Counted from the first letter of the stretch, positions 7,684 to 61,945 are shown. The stretch is DNA of 64,000 bases from Bacteroidota bacterium (GCA_016707685.1 JADJHE010000008.1:31300-95299); one strand, 5' to 3'. Translations and numbers: made by a program. Notes: a model not told the origin generated them from the sequence alone.

Positions 7684-10600
7684 TACCCATAAAAAGTACG
7701 TCATCTATTTGATCGTTTCCTTCTTTCCAACGATTAAAAAAGCGATCAATAATCATACTTTGTTTTTCAATTGGTAATACTTTGATGTCTTCTAATAAAT
7801 CTCTTATTGCAGCAATTTTCAGCTTTTTCCCCGATTCTCCACCAAACTGATCGGGATAACCATCTGTGAAGAAATACAAGAGATCTCCTTGGGCTAATTG
7901 AATATCGGTTGTTTCATATTCATTGGTTTCAGAGACTTCCTTTTTTAAGAGTTTTAATTCATTGTTTTTTGAAACAAACACAGGTCGTTTTGTGGAGCAA
8001 ATTCTGACGAAATAGGTTTCAATGTCAATTTCACAAACAACCAAATCAATACTGTCATTTGTTTGGTCTGGGTCGTCATCGAACTGATGCAAAAGAATTT
8101 TTGTTTCCAACTCAAGCGCTGCTAATGCGTGTGCAGGTGATGTAACCTCAGAGCGGGAAGTAATATCTTTTAACAACGTATTTCCAATCATACTCATAAA
8201 TGCACCTGGAACACCATGACCAGTTGCATCGGCACAAGCAATAATCAATTTATTTCCATACAATTCAAACCAATAAAAATCACCACTCACAATATCTCGA
8301 GGCTGAAAGAAAATAAAGGATTCCGGAAAAACATCTTTTAGTTTATTGATACCAGGTAATATAGCATCTTGTATCCGTTTGGCGTATCGAATACTATCTG
8401 TAATGTCTTTGTTTTTCTTTACAATCTCATCTTTTTGTTCTATTACTTCTCTTGTTTTTTCGTTGATTGTTTTTTGTAATTGTGCTTGAAAAACACGGTG
8501 ATTACGTTCTCGAATTTTGATAATGATAAAAATACCATAAGCAAAAATAAGAATACATATGAGGATAAACCAAGTGCGTTTCCAAAATGGAGGGTTGATA
8601 GTAATATTAACAGCGAAAGGAATTTCCGATGAAACGCCATCATTGTTGTATGCCTTTACTAAAAAGGTATAATTGCCATCCGTGATTTTTCCATATTGCG
8701 CAAAGTTGTTATCACTTTTATCCGACCAGTCTTCATCGAAGCCCTCTAGTTTATACTGATAACTAACATTGGTATTTGCTTTAAAACTAATTCCAATAAA
8801 ATCGAAACGAATTTTATAATTATCGTAATCAAGTACAATGTTTTTTAAGCTGTCAACATCCTTATCATTTAACTTGATGCTACTGATGTTTACGATTGGT
8901 GGAATAAGATTTTTTTTGTCTTTGTGCGGGTCAAATTTTATAGCACCATGTGTTGTTCCAAACCAAGCATTGCCGTATGCGTCTTTCGTTAATGCGTTAT
9001 AGTTACAATCGCCATTTATTCCATCGTTTTTATCATAGCGACTAATCAATCTGTTGCCTGCTTTAACCTTGCTTAATCCGCCTCTGTGACCAATCCAAAT
9101 GTTATTGGATGCATCATTGGTAACGCTATAACAATAGTTTGATTTTAATCCATTTTCTGTAGTTAATCGCTCAATATCGCCCTTTTTATTTACTATAAAA
9201 ACACCACTACCAAAAGTAGGTAACCAAAACCGTCCTTCATAATCTTCAAGAATTCCTGTAATGTTTATTAAGTCATTTCCATAGTATATTTTTTTATTTT
9301 TTACGGCATCGTTTGTATCAATGCTGCTTATAAAATTACTATGGGTTGCTATCCACAAGCGTTTGCTTTTATCCAAATAAAGTTGATTGATATTGTTGTG
9401 TGGTAATCCATTTTCAGTTGTATAGTGTGTGGTTATCTTTTTATCCGAATCCAGCTTAAATACACCCGCTTTCGTTGCCCAAAAAGTAATTTTATCGTAC
9501 CCCGTTACATACGAAATAGAATTACTTAAAGCATCATCATTTAAAAATATTGAACTAAAACGGCCAGTGGTGATATCAAAAATGTAAGCGCCATTTTTTT
9601 CTGTTCCTAAATAAAGTGTATTGTTGTCTTTTTTATAAATAGTAGTTACACGGTCGTCAACAAAACCATTTTTTGAATTATAAAACAGCCACTTTTCTTT
9701 TGAATTCAAATCTATTTTAAGCAATCCATTTTCGGTTCCAAACCATTTAACATCATTAATAAAAATAGAAGTAATGTTATTGGTATAATTTGGGTTTGTG
9801 TGCGAATAGAATGTGAATAGGTTGTCGGTTAGCATCACAGCGCCAGAGCCAAATGTTCCTACCCAAATATTGTCCTCGTGATCGGAATAAATTGTTTTTG
9901 TATAATTATTTCCTAAGCCGTTTGCTTCATTAAAAACAGCAAATTCATTGTAAGATAAGGTGTTTTTAGAAAGTGTTAATTTAACAACACCACTACCAAA
10001 TGTTGCTATCCAAAGATTGGAAACCTTATCTTCAAAAACAGCCTGTATGTTTAAAAGATCGCAACCTTCGGGTGGGTTGATTTTTTTGGTTGTATAGCTA
10101 TGTGCTTTTTTTGCAGATGGGCTAATAAGCATCAATCCCAAATCTTGCGTACCAACCCAAAAACTGGTAGAGTTTATTTTTTTAACAATACAGTTAATTT
10201 TCGTGTTTTCTATTTCACTAAGTGCAGCAATAAATTTTGGTTTTCTATTCTCGCCAACAAGTTCATATATAATCAACCCTTCGGCAGTGCCAACGAGTAA
10301 ATCATTGTTTTTAGAGAGTGCAATCGAGAAAACGTTGTATTGATCAAATTCGATTTTAAAGACTTCTACCTCAAACGATTTGTTAATTCTAAAAATTCCG
10401 TCATTTTGTGTAGCACACCAAATAAAGCCTTTGTCATCGCCAATGATTTGTGTAACTGGGCTTTTAGCAAATCCACTCGTATTAATGGATTTAAAGGTTT
10501 TTCCATCAAAAAAAGTAACGCTACCTTGGTTGTGACCAATCCATAAATTCCTGTTTTTATCTTTATATGTGCTAGTAATGAAGTTGTCGCTTAATCCTTC

Positions 10601-10873
10601 TTTGGTATAAAACGTTTTAAAGGTAACGCCATCAAATTTGCAAAAGCCCTCTCCAGTTCCTATCCATAAATAGCCATTTTTATCTTGTACGATTGAGTAT
10701 ACATACGGTTGTGTGATACCGTTATCAACACTGTAATTTTTAAATTGATATGCTTGAGAAAAGCCCGAAAAGCTCGATAGCAGCAGTAGGATAAATGCAA
10801 CTAATTTTTTGAAAATGCTTTTCAAGTTTCTAAAAATTAAGATTAGTAAGTGGTTGTTTTTTTCTTTTGTCAA
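7673..10873 (-). CDS. paralogous propeller/Y_Y_Y-TM-PP2C sensor phosphatase
   Basis: Same architecture and PP2C motifs: DIVSGDFYW, DATGHGVPGAFMS, FTDGYPDQFGG. It is convergent with the previous gene and overlaps it by 11 bp. Its 5' end overlaps the next gene by 44 bp, so the true start may be downstream. Confidence 0.85.
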   Translation of the reverse strand: MTKEKNNHLLILIFRNLKSIFKKLVAFILLLLSSFSGFSQAYQFKNYSVDNGITQPYVYSIVQDKNGYLWIGTGEGFCKFDGVTFKTFYTKEGLSDNFITSTYKDKNRNLWIGHNQGSVTFFDGKTFKSINTSGFAKSPVTQIIGDDKGFIWCATQNDGIFRINKSFEVEVFKIEFDQYNVFSIALSKNNDLLVGTAEGLIIYELVGENRKPKFIAALSEIENTKINCIVKKINSTSFWVGTQDLGLMLISPSAKKAHSYTTKKINPPEGCDLLNIQAVFEDKVSNLWIATFGSGVVKLTLSKNTLSYNEFAVFNEANGLGNNYTKTIYSDHEDNIWVGTFGSGAVMLTDNLFTFYSHTNPNYTNNITSIFINDVKWFGTENGLLKIDLNSKEKWLFYNSKNGFVDDRVTTIYKKDNNTLYLGTEKNGAYIFDITTGRFSSIFLNDDALSNSISYVTGYDKITFWATKAGVFKLDSDKKITTHYTTENGLPHNNINQLYLDKSKRLWIATHSNFISSIDTNDAVKNKKIYYGNDLINITGILEDYEGRFWLPTFGSGVFIVNKKGDIERLTTENGLKSNYCYSVTNDASNNIWIGHRGGLSKVKAGNRLISRYDKNDGINGDCNYNALTKDAYGNAWFGTTHGAIKFDPHKDKKNLIPPIVNISSIKLNDKDVDSLKNIVLDYDNYKIRFDFIGISFKANTNVSYQYKLEGFDEDWSDKSDNNFAQYGKITDGNYTFLVKAYNNDGVSSEIPFAVNITINPPFWKRTWFILICILIFAYGIFIIIKIRERNHRVFQAQLQKTINEKTREVIEQKDEIVKKNKDITDSIRYAKRIQDAILPGINKLKDVFPESFIFFQPRDIVSGDFYWFELYGNKLIIACADATGHGVPGAFMSMIGNTLLKDITSRSEVTSPAHALAALELETKILLHQFDDDPDQTNDSIDLVVCEIDIETYFVRICSTKRPVFVSKNNELKLLKKEVSETNEYETTDIQLAQGDLLYFFTDGYPDQFGGESGKKLKIAAIRDLLEDIKVLPIEKQSMIIDRFFNRWKEGNDQIDDVLFMGIKL

Positions 10874-14971: not shown

Positions 14972-16190
14972 TTGAAATTCAACGATTTTAATTTTGAGTC
15001 CAGCTTACAAGAAGGGCTTGATTCAATGGGCTTTGAAAACCCAACACCAATTCAGGAGCAAGCAATCCCAATTATATTAAGCAACAAAGACCTTATTGGT
15101 TGTGCGCAAACAGGAACGGGTAAAACAGCAGCATTCTTATTGCCTATTTTAAATAAGCTTACCGCTAATCCAACCGATTTAACCAATACGCTTATTATTG
15201 TACCAACACGTGAGTTGGCTTTACAAATAGATCATGCATTGCAAGGCTTCGTATTTTACATCGGTGAGCTCATTAGCCATTTATGGAGGTAGCGATGGAA
15301 GTGTGTTTGAACAAGAGAAAAAAGCATTAACACAAGGTGCCAATGTAATTATAGCAACACCAGGCCGATTGATGGCCCATTTAAACATGGGTTATGTGAA
15401 GCTGGATAACCTGCAACATTTAATATTGGACAGACTTGATCGTATGTTGGACATGGGCTTTGTGGATGACATTATTAAAATAACTACCTATTTGCCAAAA
15501 CCGACAAACATTGATGTTTTCGGCAACCATGGCACCACGCATTCGCACCTAGCAACCAAGTTGTTGAATGAGCCAGAACAAATTACCATATCACTTTCGA
15601 AACCTGCCGAAGGAGTGGTACAAGGAGCATATTTGGTGTACGATACACAAAAGAACAATTTGATAAAATCGCTTTTATCAGGCAAAGAAAAAGAGTTGAG
15701 TAGTGTCATCATCTTTTTATCGACTAAGATAAAGTAAAAAGAACTGGAACGCGATTTACAAAAGCAGGATTAAAAGCAAAAGCAATTCATTCCGATTTAG
15801 AACAAGGTGAAGCGCGAAGAAGTATTGCGAAACTTTAGAAGTAAACAATTACAAATATTGGTTGCAACCGATATTTTATCGAGAGGAATAGATATTGAAG
15901 ACATTGGATTGGTAATCAATTATGATGTGCCAGGCGATGCTGCGATTATATTCACCGTATTGGACGAACTGCACGCGCTGCTTCAACAGGTGTTGCATTA
16001 ACCTTTATTAATGAGTACGACCAACAAAAATTTGCACAAATAGAAACCTTGATTGCGGCAGAAGTAAAAAAATTACCATTGCCCGAAGGCTTTCAACCAG
16101 GCCCTGTGTATGCTCCCGAAGTAAAAGTGAAAAAACCTTTTGTAAAAGGTAAAAAGCCATTCAGAAAACCAAGACCACAAGGGAAGTAGC
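14972..16190 (+). pseudogene. decayed DEAD-box ATP-dependent RNA helicase
   Basis: Q-motif and motif I (AQTGTGKTAAF) and Ia (PTRELA) are intact. The DEAD box is replaced by DRLD at 15429-15440. At least four frame changes occur, near 15240, 15735, 15810 and 15960. The C-terminal HRTGRAGATG-like motif VI lies in yet another frame. Confidence 0.75.
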
Positions 16191-18395: not shown

Positions 18396-18508
18396 GCTTG
18401 CATTTTAATGTATTCAAATATACATATTTTGCAATTGCGTTTTGTAGTTGATATTGTTACAATGGTATTAAAGAACGAAATGATTATGAAAAATAAGTGC
18501 CATCTTTA

Positions 18509-18775
18509 ATTTCGCCTCTTCGCGACTTTGTATTATCAGGGCGATTTAGCTTTAGTAAGATTGTGCTCCTCTGGAGCAGTATTGAATTTTAGCTCCATCG
18601 GAGCGTAATAGCAATGGATAATAAAATAGGAAAAAACAATTTGTATCGTAGTGAAATGTTTTAGTTTTATTTCGCCCCTACGGGGCTTTGTATTATAAAG
18701 GCAGTTTAGTTTTAGTAAGATTGTGCTCCTCTGGAGCAGTATTGAATTTTAGCTCCATCGGAGCGTAATAGCAAT
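18509..18775. repeat. tandem direct repeat: two structured units of about 107 bp, period 160 bp, with an identical 65-bp core
   Basis: The core at 18551-18615 is identical to 18711-18775. Each core holds two small hairpins, TGCTCC-TCT-GGAGCA and GCTCC-ATC-GGAGC. The 5' parts differ but each forms its own hairpin: TCGC..GCGA in unit 1 and GCCCC..GGGGC in unit 2. Confidence 0.8.
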
Positions 18776-18916
18776 AGGGAATTAAAACAGAAATTAAGCA
18801 AGCTCTAGAAGAGCGAAATGGTTAATATAATAATAAGTCGATATATAATTATGATTTGTATCAGAGTTATCGCTGACATTATTGTTGATTATAGTACCAA
18901 CAATTATTAGAGAAAG

Positions 18917-18989
18917 AAAAATTAAAATTTATTTAAGGGTTGCTTCATCCGACACACAATTAACCACAAACACTACGGACGAAGCAACC
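18917..18989 (-). terminator. strong rho-independent terminator on the minus strand
   Basis: Stem of 14 bp, GGTTGCTTCATCCG / CGGACGAAGCAACC, with one A-C mismatch. On the minus strand it is followed by TTAAATAAATTTTAATTTTT. Confidence 0.6.
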
Positions 18990-19396
18990 ACCTAAATCCT
19001 CCCTACCCCAATAGGAGTTTTATTGCAACTAATCAGCCAGTAACAACCGCTACCATTGTAATTATTAGTCCCCAGCCTTGCATAAAGTTTGATCCGCTTT
19101 TTGAATTATTGTTATTTTCCATGTTGTTTTATTTTTAATATGAATGAAATTCCTTAGAGGAATAAAAATGAATGTTCCGCGATCTAATGTTATGACCGTG
19201 GAAATAAAATAAAAACAAGAGGAATCAAATTAATAACTGACGGAAGGCAATATAATGTGGAGAGGCCTCTGAGTGGGCCATTTTATTAGAGCTGTACGCT
19301 AGCAGCGAAGTGTTCGACACAAGCGTGAAACGAGAAGCATAAACGTGAAATAATCCTTTGTTATTGGAATGGTGTTGAAAGTTGGGGCGGTAATTT

Positions 19397-19606
19397 TCAG
19401 TGTTTCGAACGCTGGTGTGTAAAATCCCTTCCGAAGAAATAAGTTCTTGTTCGGCATTCGGACCAGGGGTGTTGTGAAATAGTTCCACAAAGCACTTCAC
19501 TTTGTTTTCCATCCTTTTGATGCGTAGACACAGCATTTCCTTTGCTGTATGTTGAGAACAAAACAAACAGCGAAAGTAAAAAAGTAAAAAGGTGTTTTTT
19601 ATGCAT
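19397..19606 (-). CDS. small hypothetical secreted protein of 69 aa
   Basis: The signal peptide is MHKKHLFTFLLSLFVLFSTYSKG. The mature part has two Cys. It lies in a locally GC-richer patch. Weak. Confidence 0.2.
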   Translation of the reverse strand: MHKKHLFTFLLSLFVLFSTYSKGNAVSTHQKDGKQSEVLCGTISQHPWSECRTRTYFFGRDFTHQRSKH

Positions 19607-21840: not shown

Positions 21841-23481
<1,641 letters not shown>

Positions 23482-23579
23482 TCAGAAATTTGAGGCTGCA
23501 AAAGTACGCTTTTTTATTGAAGAATTAATGCCCTTTAATGTGTTTCCTTATTGATTTTTGCTTTATTTTAGATGAATAT

Positions 23580-25709
23580 ATGAAGATAAATAAAAAATAT
23601 ACGATTCTACTGTTTGTTTTGATAGCTATTCATTCGCTGTTTGCACAAACACCTGTTGTGGATAGTTTGAAAAAATTATCGACCGCAAATGTGAACGATA
23701 CCTTGAAAATGCATGCTTATGCAGAATTGACGTATGAGTACTTATCTATTGATATTGATTCGGCAAAAATGTTTGCCAACTTGGGGATAAAAAAATATAG
23801 CAACAACAAAAATAAATTATTGCTTTCGGATTTGTATGCAGCTTTGGGTACAGCTTATGGCTATGAACGTGATTTTGATAATAGTCTTGTCAATTTTAAT
23901 AAATCACTAGCCATTTTAAAAACAACAAAAGATAAAACGGCTATTTCAAAAACCTATTTCAATATCGGTTTGATATACTACTATACTGCTAAATACGATT
24001 TAGCAATTCAGCAATACATTGAAGCATTAAAATTATTAGAATCAATAAAAGACACGCAAACACTTCCTAATATTTACAATGGCTTGAGTGGTATGTACAA
24101 AGAGATTCGCAACTATGACGAAGCACTTAATTATGGACAAAAAGCCTTAAAATTATTTAGTCAGAATAAAGATTCAGTTGGCATGGCATCGGCATTAAAC
24201 AATGTTGGAAATGTATACGATTATCAGAATAAATTGGATGAGGCACTAGATAATTATCGCAAATCGATGCGAATGAAAGAGCTTATAAAAATGGAAAGAG
24301 GGATGTCTAGTACACTCAACAACATTGGAATTATATTATCAAAAAAAGATAGTGTGTTGCAAGCCTTGGAATATTACAACAAAGCATTAAGCTTTTCGTC
24401 TGTTAACTCCGATAAGATAAGTCAGGCTGTTTCCTATGATGGAATAGGAATGGTGTATTACAAAATGAAACAATACGATAAAGCGCTTTCGTTTTTAGAA
24501 AAAAGCATCGCTATATCTACCGATATTGATTCAAAATTGGATATTGTAAGTACGTATGAAAAAATTGCTTTATGTTATGCAGCTAAAGGGAATTACAAAA
24601 AAGCATTTGATTACCAGCAGTTATTATTTGCAACAAAAGATTCTATTTTTAATGTGGAAAGTTCGAGACAAGTTAACGAGTTGGCTACACAATACGAAAC
24701 AGAAAAAAAACAATTGTTGATTGATAATTTGAATAAGGACAATGCTTTAAAGCAAGAAGAGTTGGCAAAATCCGAATTGCAAGTGAAGCAACAAAACATG
24801 CAAATCATGTTTTTTATTTTAGCGGTATTATTGCTCTCGATATTGTCGTTTTTCATTTTTAGAAGCTACAAACAAAAGAAACAATCGGCAGAAATTATTC
24901 TTTCTCAAAAAGAAGAAGTTGAGCGCCAGCGTGATTTAGTAGAAGAAAAAAGCAAAGAAATTACAGATAGTATTCATTATGCAAAGCGCATTCAGCAAGC
25001 ATTGTTGGCATCCGATACATTTCTAAAAAAGCACATTGCCGATTATTTTATTTTTTACAAACCAAAGGACATTGTGAGTGGCGATTTTTATTGGGCAAAT
25101 GTGATTGATGGTAAATTTGTATTGATAACAGCCGATTGCACAGGACATGGAGTTCCGGGTGCATTCATGAGTTTGTTAAACATTTCATATTTAAACGAAG
25201 CAATTATTGAAAAAAGAATGGATGCTCCGGATAAAATTTTGGATTATGTTCGTTCGCAAATTATTCAATCATTAAATCCAGAAGGCTCAGAAAATGAAGG
25301 AAGAGATGGTATGGATGCTACACTTTGTATTTATGATTTTAAAGGAATGTGGTTGCGTTTTTCTGCAGCAAACAATCCTTTGTGGTTGTATCGTAACAAT
25401 GAAATAAAAGAATTTTCGGCCGATAAAATGCCTGTTGGAATGTATCATGGCGAACAAAAACCCTTTACACAACAAACAATTGGATTAAGAAAGGATGATA
25501 TCGTTTATACATTTACAGATGGATTTGCGGATCAATTTGGAGGCGAAAAAGGCAAAAAATTTAAATATAAAAATCTTCAGCAATTGTTGCTCAGCAATGC
25601 CAGTAAGCCAATGGCAGAGCAAAAACAAATCCTTGAAAAAACATTAAGAGATTGGCAAGGCAATATGGAGCAAGTGGATGATATTCTTATAGTTGGAATT
25701 CGGTTTTAA
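23580..25709 (+). CDS. signal peptide, TPR-repeat periplasmic domain, TM helix, coiled coil, PP2C/SpoIIE phosphatase
   Basis: About eight TPR-like repeats (..A..Y..A...Y....). TM helix IMFFILAVLLLSILSFFIF. Phosphatase motifs DIVSGDFYW, DCTGHGVPGAFMS, RDGMD and FTDGFADQFGG. The start was set at MKINKKY, which gives a proper signal peptide. Confidence 0.85.
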   Translation: MKINKKYTILLFVLIAIHSLFAQTPVVDSLKKLSTANVNDTLKMHAYAELTYEYLSIDIDSAKMFANLGIKKYSNNKNKLLLSDLYAALGTAYGYERDFDNSLVNFNKSLAILKTTKDKTAISKTYFNIGLIYYYTAKYDLAIQQYIEALKLLESIKDTQTLPNIYNGLSGMYKEIRNYDEALNYGQKALKLFSQNKDSVGMASALNNVGNVYDYQNKLDEALDNYRKSMRMKELIKMERGMSSTLNNIGIILSKKDSVLQALEYYNKALSFSSVNSDKISQAVSYDGIGMVYYKMKQYDKALSFLEKSIAISTDIDSKLDIVSTYEKIALCYAAKGNYKKAFDYQQLLFATKDSIFNVESSRQVNELATQYETEKKQLLIDNLNKDNALKQEELAKSELQVKQQNMQIMFFILAVLLLSILSFFIFRSYKQKKQSAEIILSQKEEVERQRDLVEEKSKEITDSIHYAKRIQQALLASDTFLKKHIADYFIFYKPKDIVSGDFYWANVIDGKFVLITADCTGHGVPGAFMSLLNISYLNEAIIEKRMDAPDKILDYVRSQIIQSLNPEGSENEGRDGMDATLCIYDFKGMWLRFSAANNPLWLYRNNEIKEFSADKMPVGMYHGEQKPFTQQTIGLRKDDIVYTFTDGFADQFGGEKGKKFKYKNLQQLLLSNASKPMAEQKQILEKTLRDWQGNMEQVDDILIVGIRF

Positions 25710-25746
25710 TTCCTATTAATTTTATAAGCATTTTTATCTTGCACAT

Positions 25747-28700
25747 GTGCCGTTTTTTCTTTTATTTAGTAGTGTTTTTAACGATTTTATTGTGCCCACA
25801 ACAGTACTAAAAAAATATTTTTTATTCGTAGTTGTTTTTTTGTTCGTGCTTTTTTCGAAAGCACAACAAATGAACTTCAAAAACTTTTCTATTGAGGATG
25901 GTCTTCCTCAGTCTCAAATTATTGATATCTGTCAAGACAATACGGGTGTTATTTGGTTTGCTACCAATGGTGGTGGTGTGAGTAGATACAATGGGAATAA
26001 ATTTCTAAACTACAATACAAAAGATGGTTTAAGGAATAACCGTGTTTACGATATTTTCCAAGATTCAAAAAATACCATTTGGATAGGAACAGGCAAAGGG
26101 CTGAATAAATTTCACAATAATAAACTTGTTCATATTAGTGATGCGCAACTTGATCAGAAATCGATTCACAAAATTTATGAAAACACGAATGGTGAAATTT
26201 GGGTAGGTACGAGCGATGGAATTTTTATTTACAACGGTAAAAATTTTAGACCTTTTGTTGGTAACGATTCTATTGGTGCTTTTCAAGTATGGTCTATTCA
26301 GCAAGATAAGGCTGGAAATACGTGGATAGGAACATTGATGAATGGCGTTTTCTGTTATGATGGGAAACAAATGATTCATTTTACAAAAGAAAATGGATTG
26401 ATTGATTCAAAAAACAGAGATATTCTAATCAAAGGAAATCAGGTTTGGATTTCTACTTACAGAGGAATTAATATTTATGATTTATCAAAATCTTATTCGG
26501 GGAATCGTAAACTTGACACATTAAAATTTAATGGCAAACCATATCTTGAAACCGTTTATCGTTTTTACAAAGACACGAGTGGCGCGATATGGGCAGGAGT
26601 TGGTTCGGGGGTTGTGAAAATTACTTATGGGAACATTAAACATATTACAAAGCAAAACGGACTTTGTAGTAATATGATTTGTGGCATTACACAAGATAAA
26701 GAGGGAAATTTGTGGTTTGGTTCATTTGGAGGCGGTGTTAGTAAATACAGAAATGAATTATTTGAGAACATCAATGAAAATCAAGGATTAGCAAACAATA
26801 CGGTTATGTCTTTTTTCAAAGACAGTAAAAACAATATGTGGATTGGTACTTGGGGAGGTGGTGTTTCCAAATTAGATTTAACAACACTAGAAAAACACGA
26901 CTCTATTTCAATTCAAAATTTTATTCAATCAAAAAATGGTTTGGCATTTAACAATGTTTGGAGTATTTGCGAAGACAAGGCAGGAAAAATTTGGCTAGGG
27001 ACTTCAGCTCAAGGTGTAAGTGTATACGATGGGAAAGATTTTAAAAACTATCATATCAAAGATGGTTTGCATGGTATTCGAATTCAAACAATATTGTGCG
27101 ATAAAAAAGGAAATATTTGGATGGCCAATGAAAACGGCTTAGATAAATTTGATGGTAAAACATTTACATATTACGGTGAAAAGGAAGGAATGTCGGCAGA
27201 AGGAGTAAATGCTATTTATGAAGACAACGTTGGAAACCTTTGGTTTGGTTCACCCGATCGAATTATAAAATACGATGGTAAAATTTTTACCACCTTACTT
27301 CGACCAGGCGGTTTCCCTAAAATACGAAATATTATTCGAGACAAGTTTGGTTACATGTGGTTTAGTACAGATGCAGGTGCATGTGTTTATACGGGAAGTA
27401 AATTTTATTTGGTTTCAGAGTCGGATGGTTTAAGTTCAAATACAGTTTATTATGTAAAACCCGATGAAGATGGGAATTTGTGGTTGGGAACAAATAACGG
27501 GATTGATAAGCTCGACCTTTATAAATTTGTAAACAACAATGAAGTAGAGATAAAACATTATGGTAAGGAAGAAGGTTTTATGGGAGTTGAATGCAACCAA
27601 AATGCTTTTTATAAAAACGATGACGGAAAGCTGTGGATAGGAACAATTGGTGGTGTTACCATTTACAATCCTAAAGAAGAACGAATTAATAAAATCGAAC
27701 CCCAAACACACATTACAGGAATTCGTTTATTTTTAGAGGATACAAATTTTAAAAAGTATTCGGATAGTATATTAGATGGACTTCCGATTAATCTTGTTCT
27801 TCCATACGATAAAAATCACATTACGTTTGACTTTATAGGAATATCACATACAATTCCAAACAAAGTAAAATACCAGTTTATGCTGGAAGGAGCCGATCAA
27901 AATTGGTTGCCTGAAGGGAAAGAAATAAGTGCTACGTATTCAAATTTGCCTCCTGGTAAATACACGTTTGTATTAATTGCAAAAAACAATGATGGTATCT
28001 GGAATAAAAACCCTGTTCGTTTTTCTTTCGAAATAGTTCCTCCTTTTTGGCGTCAGTCTTGGTTTTATCTATTGTCGGGTGCAATTGGGATAACAGCAAT
28101 TTATCTTTTTGTTAAAATGCGTGAGCATAGTTTGCAAAGAAGTAGAATGCGTTTAAAAGAAGAAGTAGCAAACAGAACAAAAGAATTGGAAGAAGAGAAA
28201 GAAAAATTGCAAGAAGCATATTCTGAAATTGATGAAAAAAACAAAGACATTACCGATAGTATAAAGTATGCGAAACGAATCCAAGAAGCAATTTTGCCTG
28301 CCGATTCAATTTTTAAACAACACTTGCCAAATTCGTTTGTGTTGTATAAACCAAAAGATATTGTAAGTGGAGACTTTTACTGGTTAGAAAAATGGGGACA
28401 TCAAATTTTGATAGCAGCAGTTGATTGCACTGGACATGGCGTTCCTGGTGCCTTTATGAGTATTGTTGGGCACAACTTGTTAACTCAAACAGTAAATGCA
28501 TTGGGGTTATCGAAACCCGCTTTGGTATTAAATGAAGTAAACCAACAACTCTCCAAAAAACTAAATCAAAATCCAGAAGAAGCAACCGTTCGCGATGGAA
28601 TGGACATTGCTCTGTGTGGAATTAATTACGTTAAAAAAACAATTGAATTTGCGGGAGCCAATAATCCCGTTTGGATTATTAAAAATGGGAAGGAGTTGGT

Positions 28701-29002
28701 TCAACTAAATGGAGACAAATTTCCAATAGGCGCTTTTGTTGGAGAAGAGCTTCAGCAATTTACCAATCATGAATGGCAATTACAAGAAGGTGATATCATT
28801 TATTTGTTTACTGATGGTTATGCCGATCAGTTTGGTGGACCTAAAGGAAAAATTCAAATACAAACAATTCGAAGAGTTGCTATTGTCTGTTTGCAATAAA
28901 CCATTTGCAGAACAAAAAGAACGATTAGAAAAAACAATAGAAGAGTGGCGAGGAGAGTTGGAGCAGGTAGATGATATATTGGTTATTGGAATAAAGATAT
29001 AA
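25747..29002 (+). CDS. propeller/Y_Y_Y-TM-PP2C sensor phosphatase. The C-terminal end is frameshifted at an A5 run (28848-28852).
   Basis: ORF 25747..28899 ends FTDGYADQFGGPKGKIQIQ*. The conserved tail (K)FKYKQ...EQVDDILVIGIKI continues in ORF 28736..29002 in the +1 frame. The paralogs read this region uninterrupted. Confidence 0.75.
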
Positions 29003-29005
29003 AAG

Positions 29006-32000
29006 TTGAAACTACTAAAAAAATACTACTACTACTTTTGTTTTTTGTTGTTAGCGCCACGAAGGCGCAATACAATGGCTTTCCTATTCGAAACTACTCC
29101 CAAAAGGAATACAATGCATTTATGCAAAATTGGTATTGTGTTCAAGATAAACGTGGTGTTTTATATTTTGGAAATAGTAGTAATGTATTGGAATACGATG
29201 GAAAAAACTGGCGTAAAATTCCAATTGTTAAAGGAGTTGCTGTTCGCTCACTATACATAAATAGTCAAGGGACCATATTTGTTGGAACGGTTGGTGATTT
29301 TGGTTATTTAGCACCTCAAAAAAATGGAGATTTAATTTATCAATCATTAAGCTCCTTGTTACCTGCTGAAAAAAGAACATTTTCAGATGTGTGGCACATA
29401 CAAGAATTGAATGGTGCAATTCATTTTCAAACGAGTGAAAATATATTTGTTTATGAAAAGAATAAACTAAAAGTTGTTGCACCAACGCAAAACACATTTG
29501 CTTCCATCTCGTTTAAAATAAACGATCTTCTATTGCTTCGTGAGCGTAAAATTGGATTGATGAAGTGGGACGGCAAATCTTTGTCATTGTTTCCGGGTGG
29601 AGCTTTTTTGCAGAACACTGCAGTTGTAGGGATGATTAATTTTCCAACCCAACACAGCAAGAATATTTTAACAATCTCAGTTGATGAAGGATTTGCCTTC
29701 ATCGATACTGAAAAAGGAAAAATTACAAAATACAATGCTCCTTCCGAAAACGAATTAAATACGATTGGCGTTTTAGGAATGCAGTGGTTTAATGATTCAA
29801 CAATAATTTTAAATACACGCTCAGGTGTTTATTTTTTAGATAACAAACTAAACATCATTCGAACAATAACCAAAGCAGATGGATTGGTAGATGAATCGGT
29901 AGCAGACATTTTTTTTGATTTGCAAAAAGAAATGTGGCTAAGCACAAATAATGGAATTAGTAAAGTATCGGTAAATTCTCCCTTTTATTATTACAATGCT
30001 ACAGCAGGATTAAATGGAAATATTGAAGCTATTACAACACTTGGAAATACAATTTACGTTGGAACAACATCTGGAATGTATGTTGCAGAATTAGGAACAA
30101 ACAATAGAAGTGGCGCTCCTCAAAAATTAGTTTTTAATCAAGTTGAAGGCACTTATTTTGAGACATGGAATTTTAGAGTGGCAGAGAACAGGGTATATGG
30201 AGCAACAAGTGATGGGGTTTTCGAAATTGTAAACAAAAAAGTGGCTCGTCTTACGAAGGCATATTCGAACACAATTTATATTCACGAAAACAACCGAATG
30301 TTTATCGGTGAAAAAGATGGTTTACGAGTTTTAGATAAAAAGGGAGAAAAATGGATTGAATCGCACTTTTTTAGTATTCCAACAAGCGATATTATGAACT
30401 TTGTATTGGAGGGAATAAATGAGAAGAGTGAGTCTTTCGTCTGGTTTAGCACTCGAAACAGTGGTGTATATAAAATGATCATACAACCGGATTATAATTA
30501 TGCACTAACACATTTTGATACAACAAATGGATTGCCGAATGAACAGGTATTTATATTTAAAAAAAATCAGGAGGTATACTTCAATGGAAATCATTTTGTT
30601 TATCAATTTGATAAAAAGGCATCGAACCCAAAGAAAAAATTTGTTGTTGTCAATAAAAATGCATCAGCTTATAACCATAATGCAGAACCAATTCCACTTT
30701 TAAATATTGAAAATCCGAACACCCAAAAAACAGTTAAAGCAATAGCGGCAATCGAAGACCAAGGTTATACCTATTACCAATCCGATTCGTCTATTTTGTG
30801 GATAGGTTTAACAGATGTACTCACGCGCTATGATGCAACAGTTCAAAAGGAATATTCACCCGTATATACTACACTTATCAGAAAGGTTACTATTGCAAAC
30901 GATTCAACTGTTTTTGCAGGGACATTTTCTGTTCCTTTTGAAAACGGCTATGTGGTTGTTGATACACAAACCACGAACTTTATTCCAGAAATTGCTTATA
31001 AATACAACACATTGGATTTTAACTATTCAGCAGCATTTTATGATCGAGAGGATAAAATAAATTTTAGTTATAAATTAGTTGGTTTTGATACGGCTTGGAG
31101 TGAGTGGTCTAGCTTGAATTATAAACAATACACCAATTTGTATGAAGGCGAATACTCCTTTGAAGTAAAAGCAAAAAACATTTATGGACATGAAAGTAAA
31201 ATAGCAAACTATCGTTTTGTTATTCTACCTCCTTGGTATAGATCTTTCATTGCTTATATCATCTATTTTATTGCATTTATTATTTTGATTATCATAATTG
31301 TTCGCATAAGTGTTTGGCGATTAAGAAAAGCGAAAATAAAACTTGAAAAGATTGTTGACGAAAGAACCGCAGAAGTTGTAAAACAAAAAGAAGAACTACA
31401 GCAAAAAAGCGAAATTATTGAAGTTGCATACAATGATATCAAATCAAGTATTAATTATGCAAAACGAATTCAAGAAGCAATTCTTCCTTTGAATGAAGAA
31501 ATAAAAAAATCTTTCCCAGAATCATTCATTTTGTTTAAACCAAGAGATGTTGTAAGTGGAGATTTTTATTGGTTTACGAAAACCGCAGGAAAAACAATTA
31601 TTGCATGCGTTGATTGCACAGGCCATGGCGTACCTGGTGCTTTTATGAGTATGATTGGCAATACGCTATTAAACGAAATTGTGGTCGAAAAAAATATTAC
31701 ACAACCCAATCAAATACTTAACTTACTTCATGAGCGTGTTCGACAATCGTTAAAGCAGGATATGGAAAACACAGAGACACGCGATGGAATGGACATTGCT
31801 ATTTGTGTAATTGATGATGCGAAAGAGCAATTGCACTATGCAGGTGCAAATCGCTCCTTGGTAATTATTCGCGACAAGTCCTTAATTGAACTAAAAGCAG
31901 ACAAACAGCCTATAGGTGGTGATCAAATGGAGCAAGACCGTGTTTTCAAAAACATCGAATTTAAGCTTCATAAAAACGATGTTATTTACATGACAACAGA

Positions 32001-32193
32001 TGGTTATGCGGATCAATTTGGAGGAGAAAAAGGGAAAAAATTTATGGTAAAACGCCTACATCAGCTATTGATAGATTTGAATGATAAAAAAATGGATGTA
32101 CAAAGCATGCTGTTAAAAAATACTATTGAAGACTGGCAAGGGAATCTGGAACAAGTAGATGATATATTGGTAATTGGAATAAAAATCTCATGA
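29006..32193 (+). CDS. divergent-propeller/Y_Y_Y-TM-PP2C sensor phosphatase. The 5' end is probably frameshifted at an A7 run.
   Basis: The PP2C motifs VVSGDFYW, DCTGHGVPGAFMS, RDGMD and TTDGYADQFGG are intact. If the A7 run at 29017-29023 is read as A8, the TTG/ATG at 29006 gives MKLLKKILLLLLFFVVSATKAQ, a canonical signal peptide. As given, the signal peptide is split between two frames. Confidence 0.75.
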
Positions 32194-34283
32194 AAAAAAT
32201 AATCGGAATTCTATTTCTTTCAATTTTGACAAACAGTTTTATGTTTGCTCAAAAAAGTAAAGTTGTAGTTGATAGTATACAAAAGCTATTGACTGTTACA
32301 AACGATGATGCCTTGATTGTTGAATACAAAAATCAACTAGCCTATGAATATGTTATTGACGATGCTGTTAAAGCAAAAAAAACTGCAACAGAAGCACTTT
32401 CCTTGGCAACAAAAATTAATAATCAGTTAGGAATTTTAAATGCGAATAACAATCTTGGTCTTGCTTGTTATTATACAAACGACTATGACCAAGCATTAAA
32501 GCATTATTATATTTCTCGAGATATTGCTAAGGAATTAAAAAACAATTCGAAATTGGCCGTTGCTTTAAATAACATAGGTTTAGTATACGATGACAAAGCA
32601 GATTATAATAATGCATTAACGTATTATTTGCAATCGTTAAAGCTGGTGGAAGGCACAGGTGAAAGTAAGTCTCAGCTAGCGAGTACATTAAATAACATTG
32701 CATTAATATATCAAACACAAGGAAAATACGAAGAAGCATTATCGTTTCACAACCGAGCATTAAAAATAAAAAGGGAGATTGGAAACAAGCGAGGTGAAGG
32801 AAGCTCTCTACACAATATCGGTTTAGTATATAAACTAAAAGGAGAGTATGATAAAAGTTTAGAGTTCTATCATCGAGCACTTGAACTTCGTAAGTTAATT
32901 AATGATGAGTCGGGAGTTGGACTAACACTCAATAATATTGGGAGTGTATATGATTCAAGAGGAGAATACGATAAGGCACTTCGTTATTTTGAAGAAGCAT
33001 TGGTTATACGTGAAAAATCGCAAGATAAATACGGATTAGCAATTACCTTGTTTAGTATGGGAAGTGCTTATTGTGAACGTAAAGAGTATAAAAAGGGAAA
33101 CGAATTCATAGAACGAGCAATGAACATTGCAAAGGAGATAGGTGCAAAAGAGCTATTAAAGCATGGCTATGAAACCTATGCACTTATTTATGCAGCCCAA
33201 GGCGATTACAAACATGCATACGAAAATCAGAAAGAATACATTGCTGTTAAGGATTCTATTTTAAATGAAACTACAATTCAGCAGTTGAATGAATTGCAAA
33301 CAAAATATGAAAGCGAAAAGAAGCAAAAAGAATTAGAGTTGGTTACCAAGGAAAGCAAAATTCAAGCGCTCGAGTTGAATAAAAATAAATTATGGATGTA
33401 TGTAATGGTTATTGCAATTCTTTTAGTAATAAGTCTTGCCGTACTTTTATTTAATCGCTATAACCTTAAACAAAAAGCAAACGAATTATTAGCACATCAA
33501 AATGCTGAAATAACACAACAGAAAAAGGAAATTACGGATAGTATTAATTATGCTAAACGTATTCAAGAATCTATTTTACCACCTCAAGATCATTGGAAAA
33601 AATTATTACCGAACAGTTTTATTTTTTATCGCCCGAAAGACATTGTAAGTGGCGATTTTTATTGGATAGAGCAAAAACAAAACATTGTTTGCTTTGCAGC
33701 TGTAGATTGTACTGGACATGGGGTCCCAGGGGCTTTGATGAGTGTAGTAGGCTTTAATTTACTGACACAAGCGGTGAATGAAGTGGGTTTAACAAAACCT
33801 TCTGAAATATTAGAACATTTAGATGCAGGTGTTACAAAAACATTGCGACAAACAGAACATGGTAAAGGAGTAAAAGATGGAATGGATTTATCTTTGTGTT
33901 CGTTTGATACAACAACGAATTTGCTGCAATATGCAGGCGCATTTAATGCGTTGTATTACGTTAGAGAAAATACGTTACACGAAATAAAAGCAGATAAATT
34001 TCCAATTGGAGTAAATTTAGATGGCATTGTAGATAATTATAAAAATCATACGATTCAATTACAAAAAGGAGATTGTGTGTATTTGTTTTCGGATGGATAT
34101 GCTGATCAGTTTGGTGGTTCAAAAGGAAAAAAATTCAAATACAATCAATTGAAAAATCTATTTATAGAGATTGCTAAACAGCCAGTTGATGAGCAAAAAC
34201 AAATTATTGCTGATGCTTTTGATGTGTGGAAAGGTGGTTTAGAGCAAGTGGATGATGTTGTAGTAATAGGATTGAAAATCTAA
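32190..34283 (+). CDS. signal peptide, TPR domain, TM helix, PP2C/SpoIIE phosphatase
   Basis: TPR repeats. TM helix LWMYVMVIAILLVISLAVLLF. Phosphatase motifs DIVSGDFYW, DCTGHGVPGALMS, KDGMD and FSDGYADQFGG. The start overlaps the upstream stop by 4 nt (ATGA). Confidence 0.85.
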   Translation: MKKIIGILFLSILTNSFMFAQKSKVVVDSIQKLLTVTNDDALIVEYKNQLAYEYVIDDAVKAKKTATEALSLATKINNQLGILNANNNLGLACYYTNDYDQALKHYYISRDIAKELKNNSKLAVALNNIGLVYDDKADYNNALTYYLQSLKLVEGTGESKSQLASTLNNIALIYQTQGKYEEALSFHNRALKIKREIGNKRGEGSSLHNIGLVYKLKGEYDKSLEFYHRALELRKLINDESGVGLTLNNIGSVYDSRGEYDKALRYFEEALVIREKSQDKYGLAITLFSMGSAYCERKEYKKGNEFIERAMNIAKEIGAKELLKHGYETYALIYAAQGDYKHAYENQKEYIAVKDSILNETTIQQLNELQTKYESEKKQKELELVTKESKIQALELNKNKLWMYVMVIAILLVISLAVLLFNRYNLKQKANELLAHQNAEITQQKKEITDSINYAKRIQESILPPQDHWKKLLPNSFIFYRPKDIVSGDFYWIEQKQNIVCFAAVDCTGHGVPGALMSVVGFNLLTQAVNEVGLTKPSEILEHLDAGVTKTLRQTEHGKGVKDGMDLSLCSFDTTTNLLQYAGAFNALYYVRENTLHEIKADKFPIGVNLDGIVDNYKNHTIQLQKGDCVYLFSDGYADQFGGSKGKKFKYNQLKNLFIEIAKQPVDEQKQIIADAFDVWKGGLEQVDDVVVIGLKI

Positions 34284-35008
34284 TTGTTGATTTCCAGTTT
34301 TGTACAAGCATCTTCTGAAGCCAATTGTTCTGCACGTTTTTTAGAAAAGTGTTGTGCTATTCCAACAACTTCATTGTCGACAAGTAAGTGTATTAAAAAC
34401 ATTTTATCTGCGGAGTTTGCAGCATCAATAATTATACTGAACACAAATTCCTTTTTTTCTTTTTGTGCCCACTCAATAAATTTACTCTTAAAATCTACTT
34501 CTTTTGTTTCTAATTCATCAATATCCATATGCACATTGATAATTCGTTTTAGAATATATTCTTTCGTTGCATTATACCCTTTGTCGAGATAGATAGCGCC
34601 AATTAATGCTTCGTAAGCATCGCCATTGATTGAGCTTGGTTTGCTGCCACGATCGTTATTCGTTTCAATGAATTTGTTCAAACCAAGCTTTAATGCAATT
34701 TGGTTGTGTTGGTTGCGGCTCACCATTTTAGAACGCATCTTGGTCAAGAAGCCTTCGTCTTTGTAAGGAAATTTTTTGAATAGATATTCTGCTATCACAG
34801 TACCAATAATGGAATCGCCTAAAAATTCTAGGCGTTCATTACTGTCTTTAATTCCTTTTTGTAAATGTTGTGCAGCAGAGCTATGGCGGAAAGCCAATTT
34901 GTACAAATCAATATTGGTTGGATAAAATCCAAGGATATTGCGTAATGATTCGTGCAGTTTTTTTTCAGGAGAAAAATAAACGCGTATTGGCTTTTGAAAA
35001 ACGCTCAA
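34280..35008 (-). CDS. rnc: ribonuclease III
   Basis: The RNase III signature ERLEFLGDSIIG is followed by a C-terminal dsRBD-like region. Confidence 0.9.
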   Translation of the reverse strand: MSVFQKPIRVYFSPEKKLHESLRNILGFYPTNIDLYKLAFRHSSAAQHLQKGIKDSNERLEFLGDSIIGTVIAEYLFKKFPYKDEGFLTKMRSKMVSRNQHNQIALKLGLNKFIETNNDRGSKPSSINGDAYEALIGAIYLDKGYNATKEYILKRIINVHMDIDELETKEVDFKSKFIEWAQKEKKEFVFSIIIDAANSADKMFLIHLLVDNEVVGIAQHFSKKRAEQLASEDACTKLEINN

Positions 35009-35023
35009 TCGGGAAACGATTAG

Positions 35024-36280
35024 TTAGGCTTTGTATTTTTTTACAATAACAGAAGCATTGTGTCCACCAAATCCAAATGTGTTGCTTAATGCAGCACGAA
35101 CTTCGCGTTTTTGAGCTTTGTTAAATGTAAAATTTAATTTGTTGTCCAATGCTGGATCATCTGTAAAGTGATTGATTGTTGGAGGAACAATATCATTCTG
35201 AACAGATAAAACACAAGCAATCGCCTCAATAGCACCAGCAGCACCTAATAAGTGACCAGTCATTGATTTGGTTGAGCTAATGTTTAGTTTGTAAGCATGT
35301 TCACCAAAAACACCAAGGATGGCTTTTGATTCGGCAACATCACCAAGTGGAGTAGATGTTCCGTGAACATTTACATAATCAATATCTTCAGCTTTCATTT
35401 CTGCATCTTCTAATGCAAGGCGCATTACATTACGTGCTCCTAATCCTTCTGGATGAGGCGCTGTAATGTGATTTGCATCGGCAGTCATTCCACCACCTAC
35501 AACTTCAGCATAAATTTTAGCACCACGCTTTAATGCGTGTTCAAGTTCTTCAAGAATTAAAGCACCAGCTCCTTCACCCAATACAAAACCATCACGGTTT
35601 GCATCAAATGGACGAGATGCTGTTTCAGGAGATTCGTTGTTTGTAGACAATGCATGCATTGCGTTGAATCCACCGATACCTGCTTCGCATACTGCAGCTT
35701 CTGATCCACCAGTAACAATAATGTCTGCTTTGCCCAATTTAATGTACATAGCAGCATCAATTAATGCGTTGGTTGATGAAGCACAAGCTGAAACGGTTGT
35801 GAAATTTGGTCCGCGCATACCATACATGATGGAAATGTGTCCAGAACAAATATCAGCAATCATTTTCGGAATAAAGAATGGATTAAAACGAGGAGTTCCA
35901 TCACCTTTTGCATAGCCAAAACATTCGTCTTGGAAGGTTTGTAAACCACCTATTCCTGAACCCCAGATTACTCCAGTTCTATCAGGATCAAAAGCGCCTT
36001 CTTTGTCCAATCCAGCATCTTTTACTGCTTGCATTGCTGAAACTAAACCATATTGAGAAAATGGATCTAGCTTACGAGCTTCTTTTCTGTCTAAGAAGTC
36101 TTCAGGATTAAATCCTTTAACTTCACAGGCAAAACGAGTTTTAAACTTTGAAGCATCGAAACGAGTAATAGGTGCAGCTCCGCTAACACCATTTAATAGG
36201 TTATTCCAATAATCGGTAACCGTATTACCAAGTGGCGTAATTGCGCCTAGGCCTGTAACTACTACTCGTCTCAACTTCAT
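35024..36280 (-). CDS. fabF: beta-ketoacyl-ACP synthase II
   Basis: The KAS active-site context (..SACASS.., HGTSTPLGD, GHLLGAAG) is present. It lies next to acpP. Confidence 0.9.
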   Translation of the reverse strand: MKLRRVVVTGLGAITPLGNTVTDYWNNLLNGVSGAAPITRFDASKFKTRFACEVKGFNPEDFLDRKEARKLDPFSQYGLVSAMQAVKDAGLDKEGAFDPDRTGVIWGSGIGGLQTFQDECFGYAKGDGTPRFNPFFIPKMIADICSGHISIMYGMRGPNFTTVSACASSTNALIDAAMYIKLGKADIIVTGGSEAAVCEAGIGGFNAMHALSTNNESPETASRPFDANRDGFVLGEGAGALILEELEHALKRGAKIYAEVVGGGMTADANHITAPHPEGLGARNVMRLALEDAEMKAEDIDYVNVHGTSTPLGDVAESKAILGVFGEHAYKLNISSTKSMTGHLLGAAGAIEAIACVLSVQNDIVPPTINHFTDDPALDNKLNFTFNKAQKREVRAALSNTFGFGGHNASVIVKKYKA

Positions 36281-61905: not shown

Positions 61906-61945
61906 AAAGCCCCTTTAAAAAAATTAGAGGGGCTTTTTTCTTTTT
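61906..61945 (+). terminator. rho-independent terminator downstream of asnS
   Basis: AAAGCCCCTTTAA-AAAA-TTAGAGGGGCTTT followed by TTTCTTTTTC. Confidence 0.7.

Follow-up and report, generated by a model that had tools for sequence, protein, structure and literature searches.

Four sensor-phosphatase paralogs of a Bacteroidota bacterium: candidate SiaA-like inputs to a partner switch encoded elsewhere

What might a row of four sensor-bearing phosphatase genes do for a bacterium? The row considered here, genes g1 to g4, occupies positions 23580-34283 of a 64,000-nucleotide stretch of DNA from a Bacteroidota bacterium (GCA_016707685.1 JADJHE010000008.1:31300-95299; one strand, counted from its first letter), which we call the window throughout. 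Our comparative analysis suggests, at a probability that we put at roughly 60%, that these genes are old sensor-PP2C paralogs acting as 'orphan' SiaA-like inputs to a SiaB/SiaC-type switch encoded elsewhere. The evidence for this reading comes from the phosphatase modules themselves and from the company that homologous genes keep in other genomes.

Architecture of the four genes

All four genes appear to follow one design, in which a signal peptide and a periplasmic sensor would be joined through a single transmembrane helix and a short linker to a cytoplasmic Mn/Mg-dependent PP2C phosphatase. A preliminary description of this DNA gave the gene order as TPR-PP2C, propeller-PP2C, propeller-PP2C, TPR-PP2C, and four plus-strand open reading frames with the corresponding Pfam domains bear this out:

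g1, 23580-25709, plus strand: 709 amino acids from ATG 23580; Pfam TPR_12 5.7e-41, SpoIIE 2.4e-20
g1, N-terminal part, plus strand: signal peptide, then predicted periplasmic TPR sensor
g1, further parts, plus strand: transmembrane helix 24804-24860; linker; SiaA-like PP2C module 24954-25706
g2, open reading frame in one frame, 25747-28899, plus strand: 1050 amino acids; Reg_prop 1.2e-58, Y_Y_Y 9.8e-16, SpoIIE partial
g2, first-frame part from the likely start, 25792-28899, plus strand: GTG 25792; signal peptide MPTTVLKKYF...; stop 28897-28899
g2, parts, plus strand: double beta-propeller and Y_Y_Y; transmembrane helix 28057-28113; PP2C module from 28243
g2, C-terminal 50 codons, 28850-29002, plus strand: +1 frame, from KFKYKQFEELLL to EQVDDILVIGIKI and the stop (KFKYKQ...)
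g3 as it stands, 29038-32193, plus strand: 1051 amino acids from an internal TTG; Y_Y_Y 2.6e-09, SpoIIE 6.2e-19
g3, parts, plus strand: diverged propeller and Y_Y_Y sensor; transmembrane helix 31246-31302; PP2C module 31432-32190
g4, 32190-34283, plus strand: 697 amino acids; Pfam TPR_12 1.7e-45, SpoIIE 3.2e-20
g4, parts, plus strand: signal peptide and TPR sensor; transmembrane helix 33396-33452; SiaA-like PP2C module 33525-34280

The SpoIIE match (PF07228) reaches 66-74 bits in g1-g4 against a Pfam gathering score of 25, and the PP2C motifs GDFYW, DCTGHGVPGA, DGMD, TDGYADQ and VDD are kept and align to the structure 6K4E in g1, g3, g4 and g2, the last after repair of a frameshift described below. 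By hydropathy, one strongly hydrophobic helix lies between sensor and phosphatase in all four genes, and a signal-peptide-like N-terminus is present in g1, g2 and g4, and in g3 only if this gene is read from TTG 29006. Given the signal peptides and the single hydrophobic helix, the predicted topology places the sensors in the periplasm and the phosphatases in the cytoplasm.

SiaA-type phosphatases and a predicted partner switch

For g1-g4 alike, the best NCBIfam model is SiaA (NF038263), with E-values from 4e-50 to 2e-61 (g1 3.8e-50; g4 8.3e-61) and a match limited to model positions ~373-657, which comprise the linker and PP2C. The closest solved structure of every PP2C module is 6K4E (4e-38 with a single sequence, 1.8e-65 with the g3 profile), which shows the PP2C domain from SiaA of Pseudomonas aeruginosa (PMC7647112). 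In that bacterium, SiaA removes the phosphate of SiaC and the kinase SiaB restores it; when SiaC carries no phosphate, it activates the diguanylate cyclase SiaD (PMC7647112, PMC8457831). The likeness to SiaA extends to the overall plan of a membrane-anchored sensor with a C-terminal PP2C domain (E 4e-38 to 2e-65), whereas the sensors differ: that of SiaA has HAMP, those of g1-g4 consist of a TPR array or of a propeller with Y_Y_Y.

The gene neighbourhoods of homologues point the same way. When the small same-strand neighbours of homologous genes were clustered, one pair recurred, a protein of ~187 amino acids followed by one of ~124, identified as a SiaB-family kinase (PF19788, NF038262) and SiaC (PF09345). 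Units of the type siaB-siaC-(propeller-PP2C) are found in L026, L029, L030, L096, L097 and L098, and in L041 and L054 the pair sits between two PP2C genes. Full-length homologues of the window's own genes are among these neighbours: the PP2C protein of L096 is 38% identical to g2, and that of L097 equally so to pA, a further paralog in the window, whose type also comes after siaB-siaC in L029 and L030. By tblastn, SiaB- or SiaC-like genes are present in 13 of 79 loci.

How could the four genes work? Most likely, each sensor would answer a different periplasmic cue and switch its own phosphatase on or off. The most likely target of these phosphatases is a small phosphoprotein, SiaC-like (or STAS-like), to which a SiaB-like kinase would return the phosphate, such that several inputs would converge on one partner switch, with kinase and phosphoprotein encoded outside the window. 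A switch fed by several phosphatases has a precedent in Bacillus subtilis, where RsbU and RsbP both serve one system. For g1-g4, we infer the substrate and the convergence of signals, as well as the ligands and the structure of the operon. The output of such a switch is unlikely to be a diguanylate cyclase, as no GGDEF gene stands beside siaB-siaC in the Bacteroidota loci inspected. One could go further and imagine a SiaABC-type switch acting without c-di-GMP (cyclic diguanylate), with mixed TPR/propeller dimers, whose assembly would explain the tight coupling of g2-g3-g4, integrating two cues and frameshifts rewiring the inputs, a combination that we consider highly improbable. A compact arrangement of these genes occurs in a Microscillaceae bin (L054, 8294-14314), which carries a GAF/PAS-PP2C gene, a SiaB-family kinase gene, a SiaC gene, a TPR-PP2C gene and a second SiaC gene, and so has a pair of phosphatases and a pair of phosphoproteins within a single unit.

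Several points weigh against orphan SiaA-like inputs. The SiaA model scores of 171-208 bits lie far under its 700-bit equivalog cut-off. Within the 64-kb window there is no gene for SiaB, SiaC, STAS or RsbW, and the layout of a SiaABCD-type operon is missing, with siaB, siaC and siaD absent both next to g1-g4 and in the window as a whole; moreover, no SiaB cluster mapped to the contigs of the close relatives. Two frameshifts treated below would, if real, deprive g2 of its last metal-binding DD motif and g3 of its export signal. A scan of 23000-35500 for sigma-70 promoters and intrinsic terminators gave fewer hits than shuffled sequence, with none at the junctions, and the Bacteroidetes pattern TTTG-N17-21-TAnnTTTG is neither enriched nor present upstream of g1-g4. 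Finally, the literature searched yielded no experimental study of the sensor-PP2C family in Bacteroidota.

The foremost rival assignment would make g1-g4 RsbU-like phosphatases acting on a STAS anti-anti-sigma substrate and controlling an alternative sigma factor via an RsbW-like kinase. Their output domain does belong to SpoIIE (PF07228), a family that includes RsbU, RsbP and SpoIIE itself, whose B. subtilis members are likewise regulated phosphatases acting on a small phosphoprotein; in JGI the homologues go under 'serine phosphatase RsbU (regulator of sigma subunit)', and SiaC is structurally related to STAS (PMC8457831). Yet both the closest structure and the curated family are SiaA, the spore_II_E model TIGR02865 reaches only 7e-06 (g2), and the recurrent small neighbours are SiaB and SiaC, with no further small signalling protein that recurs among the neighbour clusters examined. 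In contrast to the B. subtilis proteins, g1-g4 lack an RsbT-binding or PAS input, their sensors are predicted to be periplasmic and membrane-anchored, and no STAS or RsbW gene lies near them. We therefore regard an RsbU-type role as unlikely, and retain the SiaA-like one.

Sensors shared with histidine kinases

The sensors are of two kinds, each with relatives on kinases. Those of g2 and g3 are homologous to the double beta-propeller plus Y_Y_Y sensors of Bacteroides hybrid two-component systems (HTCS; 4a2l, 3v9f, 3ott). The relationship is evident for g2 from Reg_prop and Y_Y_Y and from its PDB matches (3v9f 1.2e-62, 4a2l 5.6e-58), and for g3 at the profile level only: Pfam finds Y_Y_Y and SpoIIE in g3 alone and no Reg_prop, but a profile of 13 g3-type proteins matches 4a2l and 3v9f with E 1e-44 in a PDB profile search, for which reason we read g3 as a diverged propeller. 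The structure 4a2l is that of BT4663, a binder of glycan fragments. The outputs differ, the HTCS proteins having a histidine kinase, a receiver and AraC, whereas g1-g4 contain no HisKA, HATPase, receiver or AraC domain and end in SpoIIE, so that in g2 and g3 a PP2C phosphatase takes that place. Propeller/Y_Y_Y sensors are likewise coupled to kinases and cyclases in other proteins (P0117, P0119, P0120).

The TPR sensors of g1 and g4 match the model of the FimS-type TPR histidine kinases of Porphyromonas over its N-terminal TPR region (NF053520; g1 3.4e-36, g4 2e-40). Here, too, the output is a kinase there and a phosphatase in g1 and g4, and the scores are far under the 600-bit cut-off.

A conserved cluster under purifying selection

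All related contigs stem from Bacteroidia or Bacteroidota metagenome bins, and the carriers of the cluster are freshwater Bacteroidota. Four of them are close relatives:

L003, Lake Mendota bin: g1 and g2, with g3 cut short by the contig end; amino-acid identity g1 93%, g2 91%, g3 77%
L080, JGI metagenome, 92% nucleotide identity: g1-g4 intact
L081, JGI metagenome, 89% nucleotide identity: g1-g4 intact
L095, Logan assembly, 92% nucleotide identity: g1-g4 intact

In L080, L081 and L095 the flanking genes of the cluster are the same as in the window. L080 and L081 match the window at all three junctions (the spacer before GTG, TAA-AAG-TTG, and ATGA), the 3-nucleotide gap between g2 and g3 is kept with a different spacer in L003 and L095, and g3 and g4 have the identical ATGA overlap in L080, L081 and L095; further away, in L001 and L002, an overlap of 1 nucleotide is retained between the orthologues of g3 and g4. 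The tightly packed co-directional unit proposed initially thus recurs, as does its 4-bp ATGA overlap, which we find at 32190-32193, and as four genes and their junction geometry return in three relatives, the cluster is, judged by this comparison, conserved beyond chance.

Selection tells a similar story. The protein of g1 is 93-94% identical to its counterparts in L003, L080 and L081. Against L003, the ratio of nonsynonymous to synonymous rates (dN/dS) is 0.037 for g1, 0.035 for g2 and 0.063 for g3, and 0.12 over the 49 g2 codons past the frameshift. Synonymous to nonsynonymous changes in the window lineage number 135:36 in g1, 254:80 in g2, 250:124 in g3 and 27:21 in g4. By these measures, all four genes are under purifying selection up to the present, and the frameshifts must therefore be very recent or not real. 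Separately, g3 evolves faster than the others, with 87% amino-acid identity to L080 and L081 as compared to 93-96% for g1, g2 and g4.

Old paralogs rather than a local duplication

The window holds further members of the family, which enter the comparison below:

paralog A (pA), 4345-7683, plus strand: 1112 amino acids; Reg_prop, Y_Y_Y and SpoIIE; TTG start
paralog B (pB), 7673-10873, minus strand: 1066 amino acids; Reg_prop, Y_Y_Y and SpoIIE
seventh paralog, 61977-64000, plus strand: propeller-type sensor, TTG start, 678-amino-acid open frame to the window end

To the preliminary description, g1-g4 looked like a modular signalling cassette built by duplication. In its strongest form, this would mean that one TPR gene and one propeller gene were recently duplicated in tandem to give the mirror order, for which the symmetrical arrangement of sensor types speaks, as do the common PP2C module and the linker motif KDITDSIxYAKRIQ in all four genes. 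However, the PP2C modules of the six complete window paralogs are only 36-61% identical, and the supposed sister pairs are not the closest ones: g1 and g4 share 43% and g2 and g3 51%, while g2 and pA share 61% and g4 and pA 57%. The sensors are further apart still, at 34% for g1 and g4 and 21% for g2 and g3. We also compared 88 PP2C modules, taken from the window and from related loci, in neighbour-joining trees (60 bootstraps), which are simple distance trees on saturated data. A group without the remaining window paralogs is recovered for g2 and g3 in 2% of the bootstraps and for g1 and g4 in 15%, as compared to 78% for g2 and pA. Relatives also carry different gene sets. Identity values and tree topology alike contradict a recent tandem duplication, which we rate as very improbable. 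The four genes are old paralogs, and those adjacent to each other are not sister copies, such that these data exclude a recent local duplication.

Setting the PP2C phylogeny against the sensors, a comparison that the preliminary description had proposed, yields a further argument. Sensor class (TPR, propeller, other) requires 15-21 changes on the trees, a rough count, where perfect congruence would require 2 and shuffled labels ~40. With at least 15 changes, the trees show that sensors have been repeatedly swapped onto the PP2C module.

Cassette content, too, varies among relatives, each cluster gene having its own orthologues. In L001 and L002, the order is a TPR-only membrane protein gene followed by the g3 and g4 orthologues; in L082, L083 and L084, it is a g2 orthologue, an LD-carboxypeptidase gene, a g4-like gene and a SprB-type adhesin gene. 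Tandem arrays of sensor-PP2C genes exist elsewhere, for example in L043, L079 and L054. Large type IX secreted adhesins of the SprB-repeat/PKD/CHU_C kind and TPR-only genes come after the g4 or g4-like genes in L001 (15409-20595) and L082 (16890-22295), and such adhesin neighbours could point to a connection with the cell surface or with gliding.

Two frameshifts in g2 and g3

As the sequence stands, g2 and g3 are both interrupted, in each case at a run of A; these two frameshifts had gone unreported in the initial gene models. DNA alignments with the four relatives place them as follows:

A5 run, 28848-28852, plus strand: window-specific 2-nucleotide deletion that frameshifts g2
original g3 start TTG 29006 and A7 run, 29017-29023, plus strand: window-specific 1-nucleotide deletion that puts the start out of frame

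At the g2 site, L003, L080 and L081 read GGAAAAAAA and L095 reads GGGAAAAAA, the run being GGA7 or GGGA6 in the relatives and GGA5 in the window. The SpoIIE match of single-frame g2 begins at profile position 3 and ends at position 143 of 192. The C-terminal 50 residues are cut off by the deletion at 28848 and continue in the +1 frame to 29002, and in an alignment to five paralogs this end bears the DD motif, the last of the metal-binding motifs in the PP2C fold, which unrepaired g2 has lost. In g3, TTG 29006 (MKLLKK...) is out of frame, an in-frame open reading frame opens only at TTG 29038, and the signal-peptide-like stretch KKILLLLLFFVVSATKAQ is left without an in-frame start codon. The corresponding site reads CTAAAGAAAAC in L003, L080 and L081 and CTAAAAAAAATAC in L095, with the gene in frame from the TTG and an orthologue product of 1062 amino acids; the run itself is AAAGAAAA in relatives, A8 in L095 and A7 in the window. 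With both repairs made, g2 ends at 29002 and g3 starts at 29006, which restores the 3-bp gap previously given for this junction; in the unrepaired sequence the two open reading frames are 138 nucleotides apart.

Are these deletions biological? The indel comparison covered ~23 kb against L095 and ~21 kb against L080 and L081, and in this region coding indels are confined to g2, g3 and two further genes:

DEAD-box RNA helicase gene, 14972-16189, plus strand: split into at least 4 open reading frames by six window-specific indels
small gene, 19225-19606, minus strand: window copy split by an extra G at 19466; 127 amino acids and intact in L095

The helicase orthologues in L080 and L081 are intact, with 407 amino acids, and the window's DEAD motif reads DRLD. 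One may see here a cassette in decay, with g2 and g3 true pseudogenes through A-run slippage and only g1 and g4 still working: both deletions are specific to the window while four relatives are intact, and the helicase, with its six indels and DRLD, and the small gene near 19466 are broken as well. Selection has, however, not been relaxed on g2 and g3 in the window lineage (254:80 and 250:124). In the helicase, six indels accompany only 8 nonsynonymous as against 25 synonymous lineage-specific changes, too many indels for so few substitutions, a homopolymer-miscall pattern that makes sequence errors likelier than long decay. Across the four broken genes (g2, g3, the helicase gene and the small gene), 8 of 9 frameshifting indels lie in or beside short base runs and 7 are deletions. 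On the other side, besides DRLD, stand the many A7 and A8 runs of the window that have stayed intact. On balance we find a decaying cassette rather doubtful; the g2 and g3 frameshifts are probably sequencing or assembly errors, with real, very recent inactivation the less favoured but quite conceivable case.

Could the A runs instead be phase-variation switches that toggle individual sensor inputs within the population? Their lengths do vary, with a pure A8 at codons 5-7 of g3 in the nearest relative L095 against A7 in the window, and A7 or A6 against A5 at the g2 site. But the difference is confined to one genome out of five, slippage would not be very efficient in runs as short as these, switches of this kind do not usually change by 2 nucleotides, and the window has many in-frame runs of A7 and A8. 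Phase variation thus seems most unlikely, and we keep to errors as the preferred explanation.

Beside the small split gene, between it and a TylF-like methyltransferase gene, ~470 nucleotides (18447-18919) show no convincing open reading frame and match nothing in L095 as far as it was aligned.

Transcription and control elements

Two intergenic elements and the genes flanking the cluster are relevant to its expression:

spacer element before g2, 25719-25788, plus strand: near-invariant; candidate promoter or operator for g2-g3-g4
divergent intergenic region, 23476-23579: presumed promoters of the ABC-F gene and g1
ABC-F ATPase gene, 21841-23475, minus strand: divergent neighbour upstream of g1
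RNase III gene, 34280-35008, minus strand: converges on g4, with a 4-nucleotide overlap with the g4 3' end

Where g2 begins affects its distance from g1. A gap of 37 bp, as originally proposed, presumes GTG 25747. The 45 nucleotides after this codon hardly vary, although the genomes compared are nearly saturated at synonymous sites, signal-peptide-type variation begins only at GTG 25792, and the gene call of L095 (1070 amino acids) uses this same GTG. On these grounds GTG 25792 is more likely to be the start, so that the spacer would measure 82 nucleotides.

Within it, 25719-25788 has 1 variable site in 70 nucleotides among the window, L080 and L081, as compared to a regional average of 13%, and is nearly invariant in L003 also. 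It contains TTTTATTTAGTAGTGTTTTTAA and a perfect 10-bp palindrome, GCACATGTGC at 25741-25750, which is the same in L003, L080 and L081, is absent in L082 and L084, both of which lack g1, and could be a regulator binding site. The spacer core, TTTTC-TTTATTTAGT-TGTTTT-AA, also precedes the orthologues of g2 in L082 and L084, where g2 is the first gene past the divergent ABC-F gene, which suggests that g2 has a promoter or operator of its own. As the RNA fold of 25719-25788 is no better than that of shuffles (z 0.22), we read the spacer as a DNA-level element. The divergent region before g1 is comparably constrained, with 2 variable sites in 218 nucleotides at 23348-23565 (window, L080, L081) against 13% overall. 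Both g1 and g2 are preceded by the motif TTTATTT(W)AG, which is not significantly enriched and is absent before the other paralogs; Rfam and tRNA scans of the whole window gave no hits.

Is the cluster one transcript? The junctions, at 37 or 82 nucleotides, 3 nucleotides (repaired) and -4 nucleotides with no terminator-like site, have the layout of an operon. For g2-g3-g4, the packing and the kept junctions fit the single transcript that had been suggested for all four genes, and these three probably form one operon, possibly with coupled translation, run from the conserved spacer. The same spacer weakens the inclusion of g1, which may be read through into g2-g4 or be expressed separately.

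Place within a widespread family

Sensor-PP2C proteins are abundant in Bacteroidota: this 64-kb window alone has six, plus a cut-off seventh propeller-sensor gene, and the databases hold hundreds of clusters with the Reg_prop/Y_Y_Y plus SpoIIE architecture, under names such as 'SpoIIE family protein phosphatase' and 'serine phosphatase RsbU/ligand-binding sensor domain-containing protein'. Bacteroidia bins, too, already contain annotated SiaB-family kinases. The cluster is thus an ordinary member of a common, annotated and experimentally unexplored family. For practical purposes, two of its four genes are broken in the given sequence, and it is to be treated as a set of conserved old paralogs, not as a fresh duplication. 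The useful outcomes of this work are the corrected gene models, the finding of no recent duplication, the candidate control element before g2 and the link to SiaB and SiaC, which provides a testable hypothesis for many uncharacterised signalling genes. A question that follows is what such a SiaC-like protein would regulate in these bacteria, given that in the loci inspected siaB-siaC has no adjacent diguanylate cyclase gene.

The remaining observations concern the window at large and the paralogs outside the cluster. The window has a G+C content of ~34% and encodes Por_Secre_tail type IX sorting domains and SprB repeats, features that mark it as Bacteroidota DNA. The convergent pair pA and pB overlaps by 11 bp with no terminator-like site in between, as the preliminary description had stated, and the TTG of pA lies 1 nucleotide past the stop of a gene for a pyridoxal-phosphate-dependent enzyme of Cys/Met metabolism (Cys_Met_Meta_PP). 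The N-terminus of the seventh paralog is closely like that of g2; before this gene lie a terminator-like hairpin and T-run at ~61908-61935, and before these a gene for a class II (Asp/Lys/Asn-type) aminoacyl-tRNA synthetase. In most of the sensor-phosphatase genes the start codon is not ATG but TTG or GTG (4345, 10873, 25792, 29006, 61977), and several have it within 1-4 nucleotides of the stop of the upstream gene.

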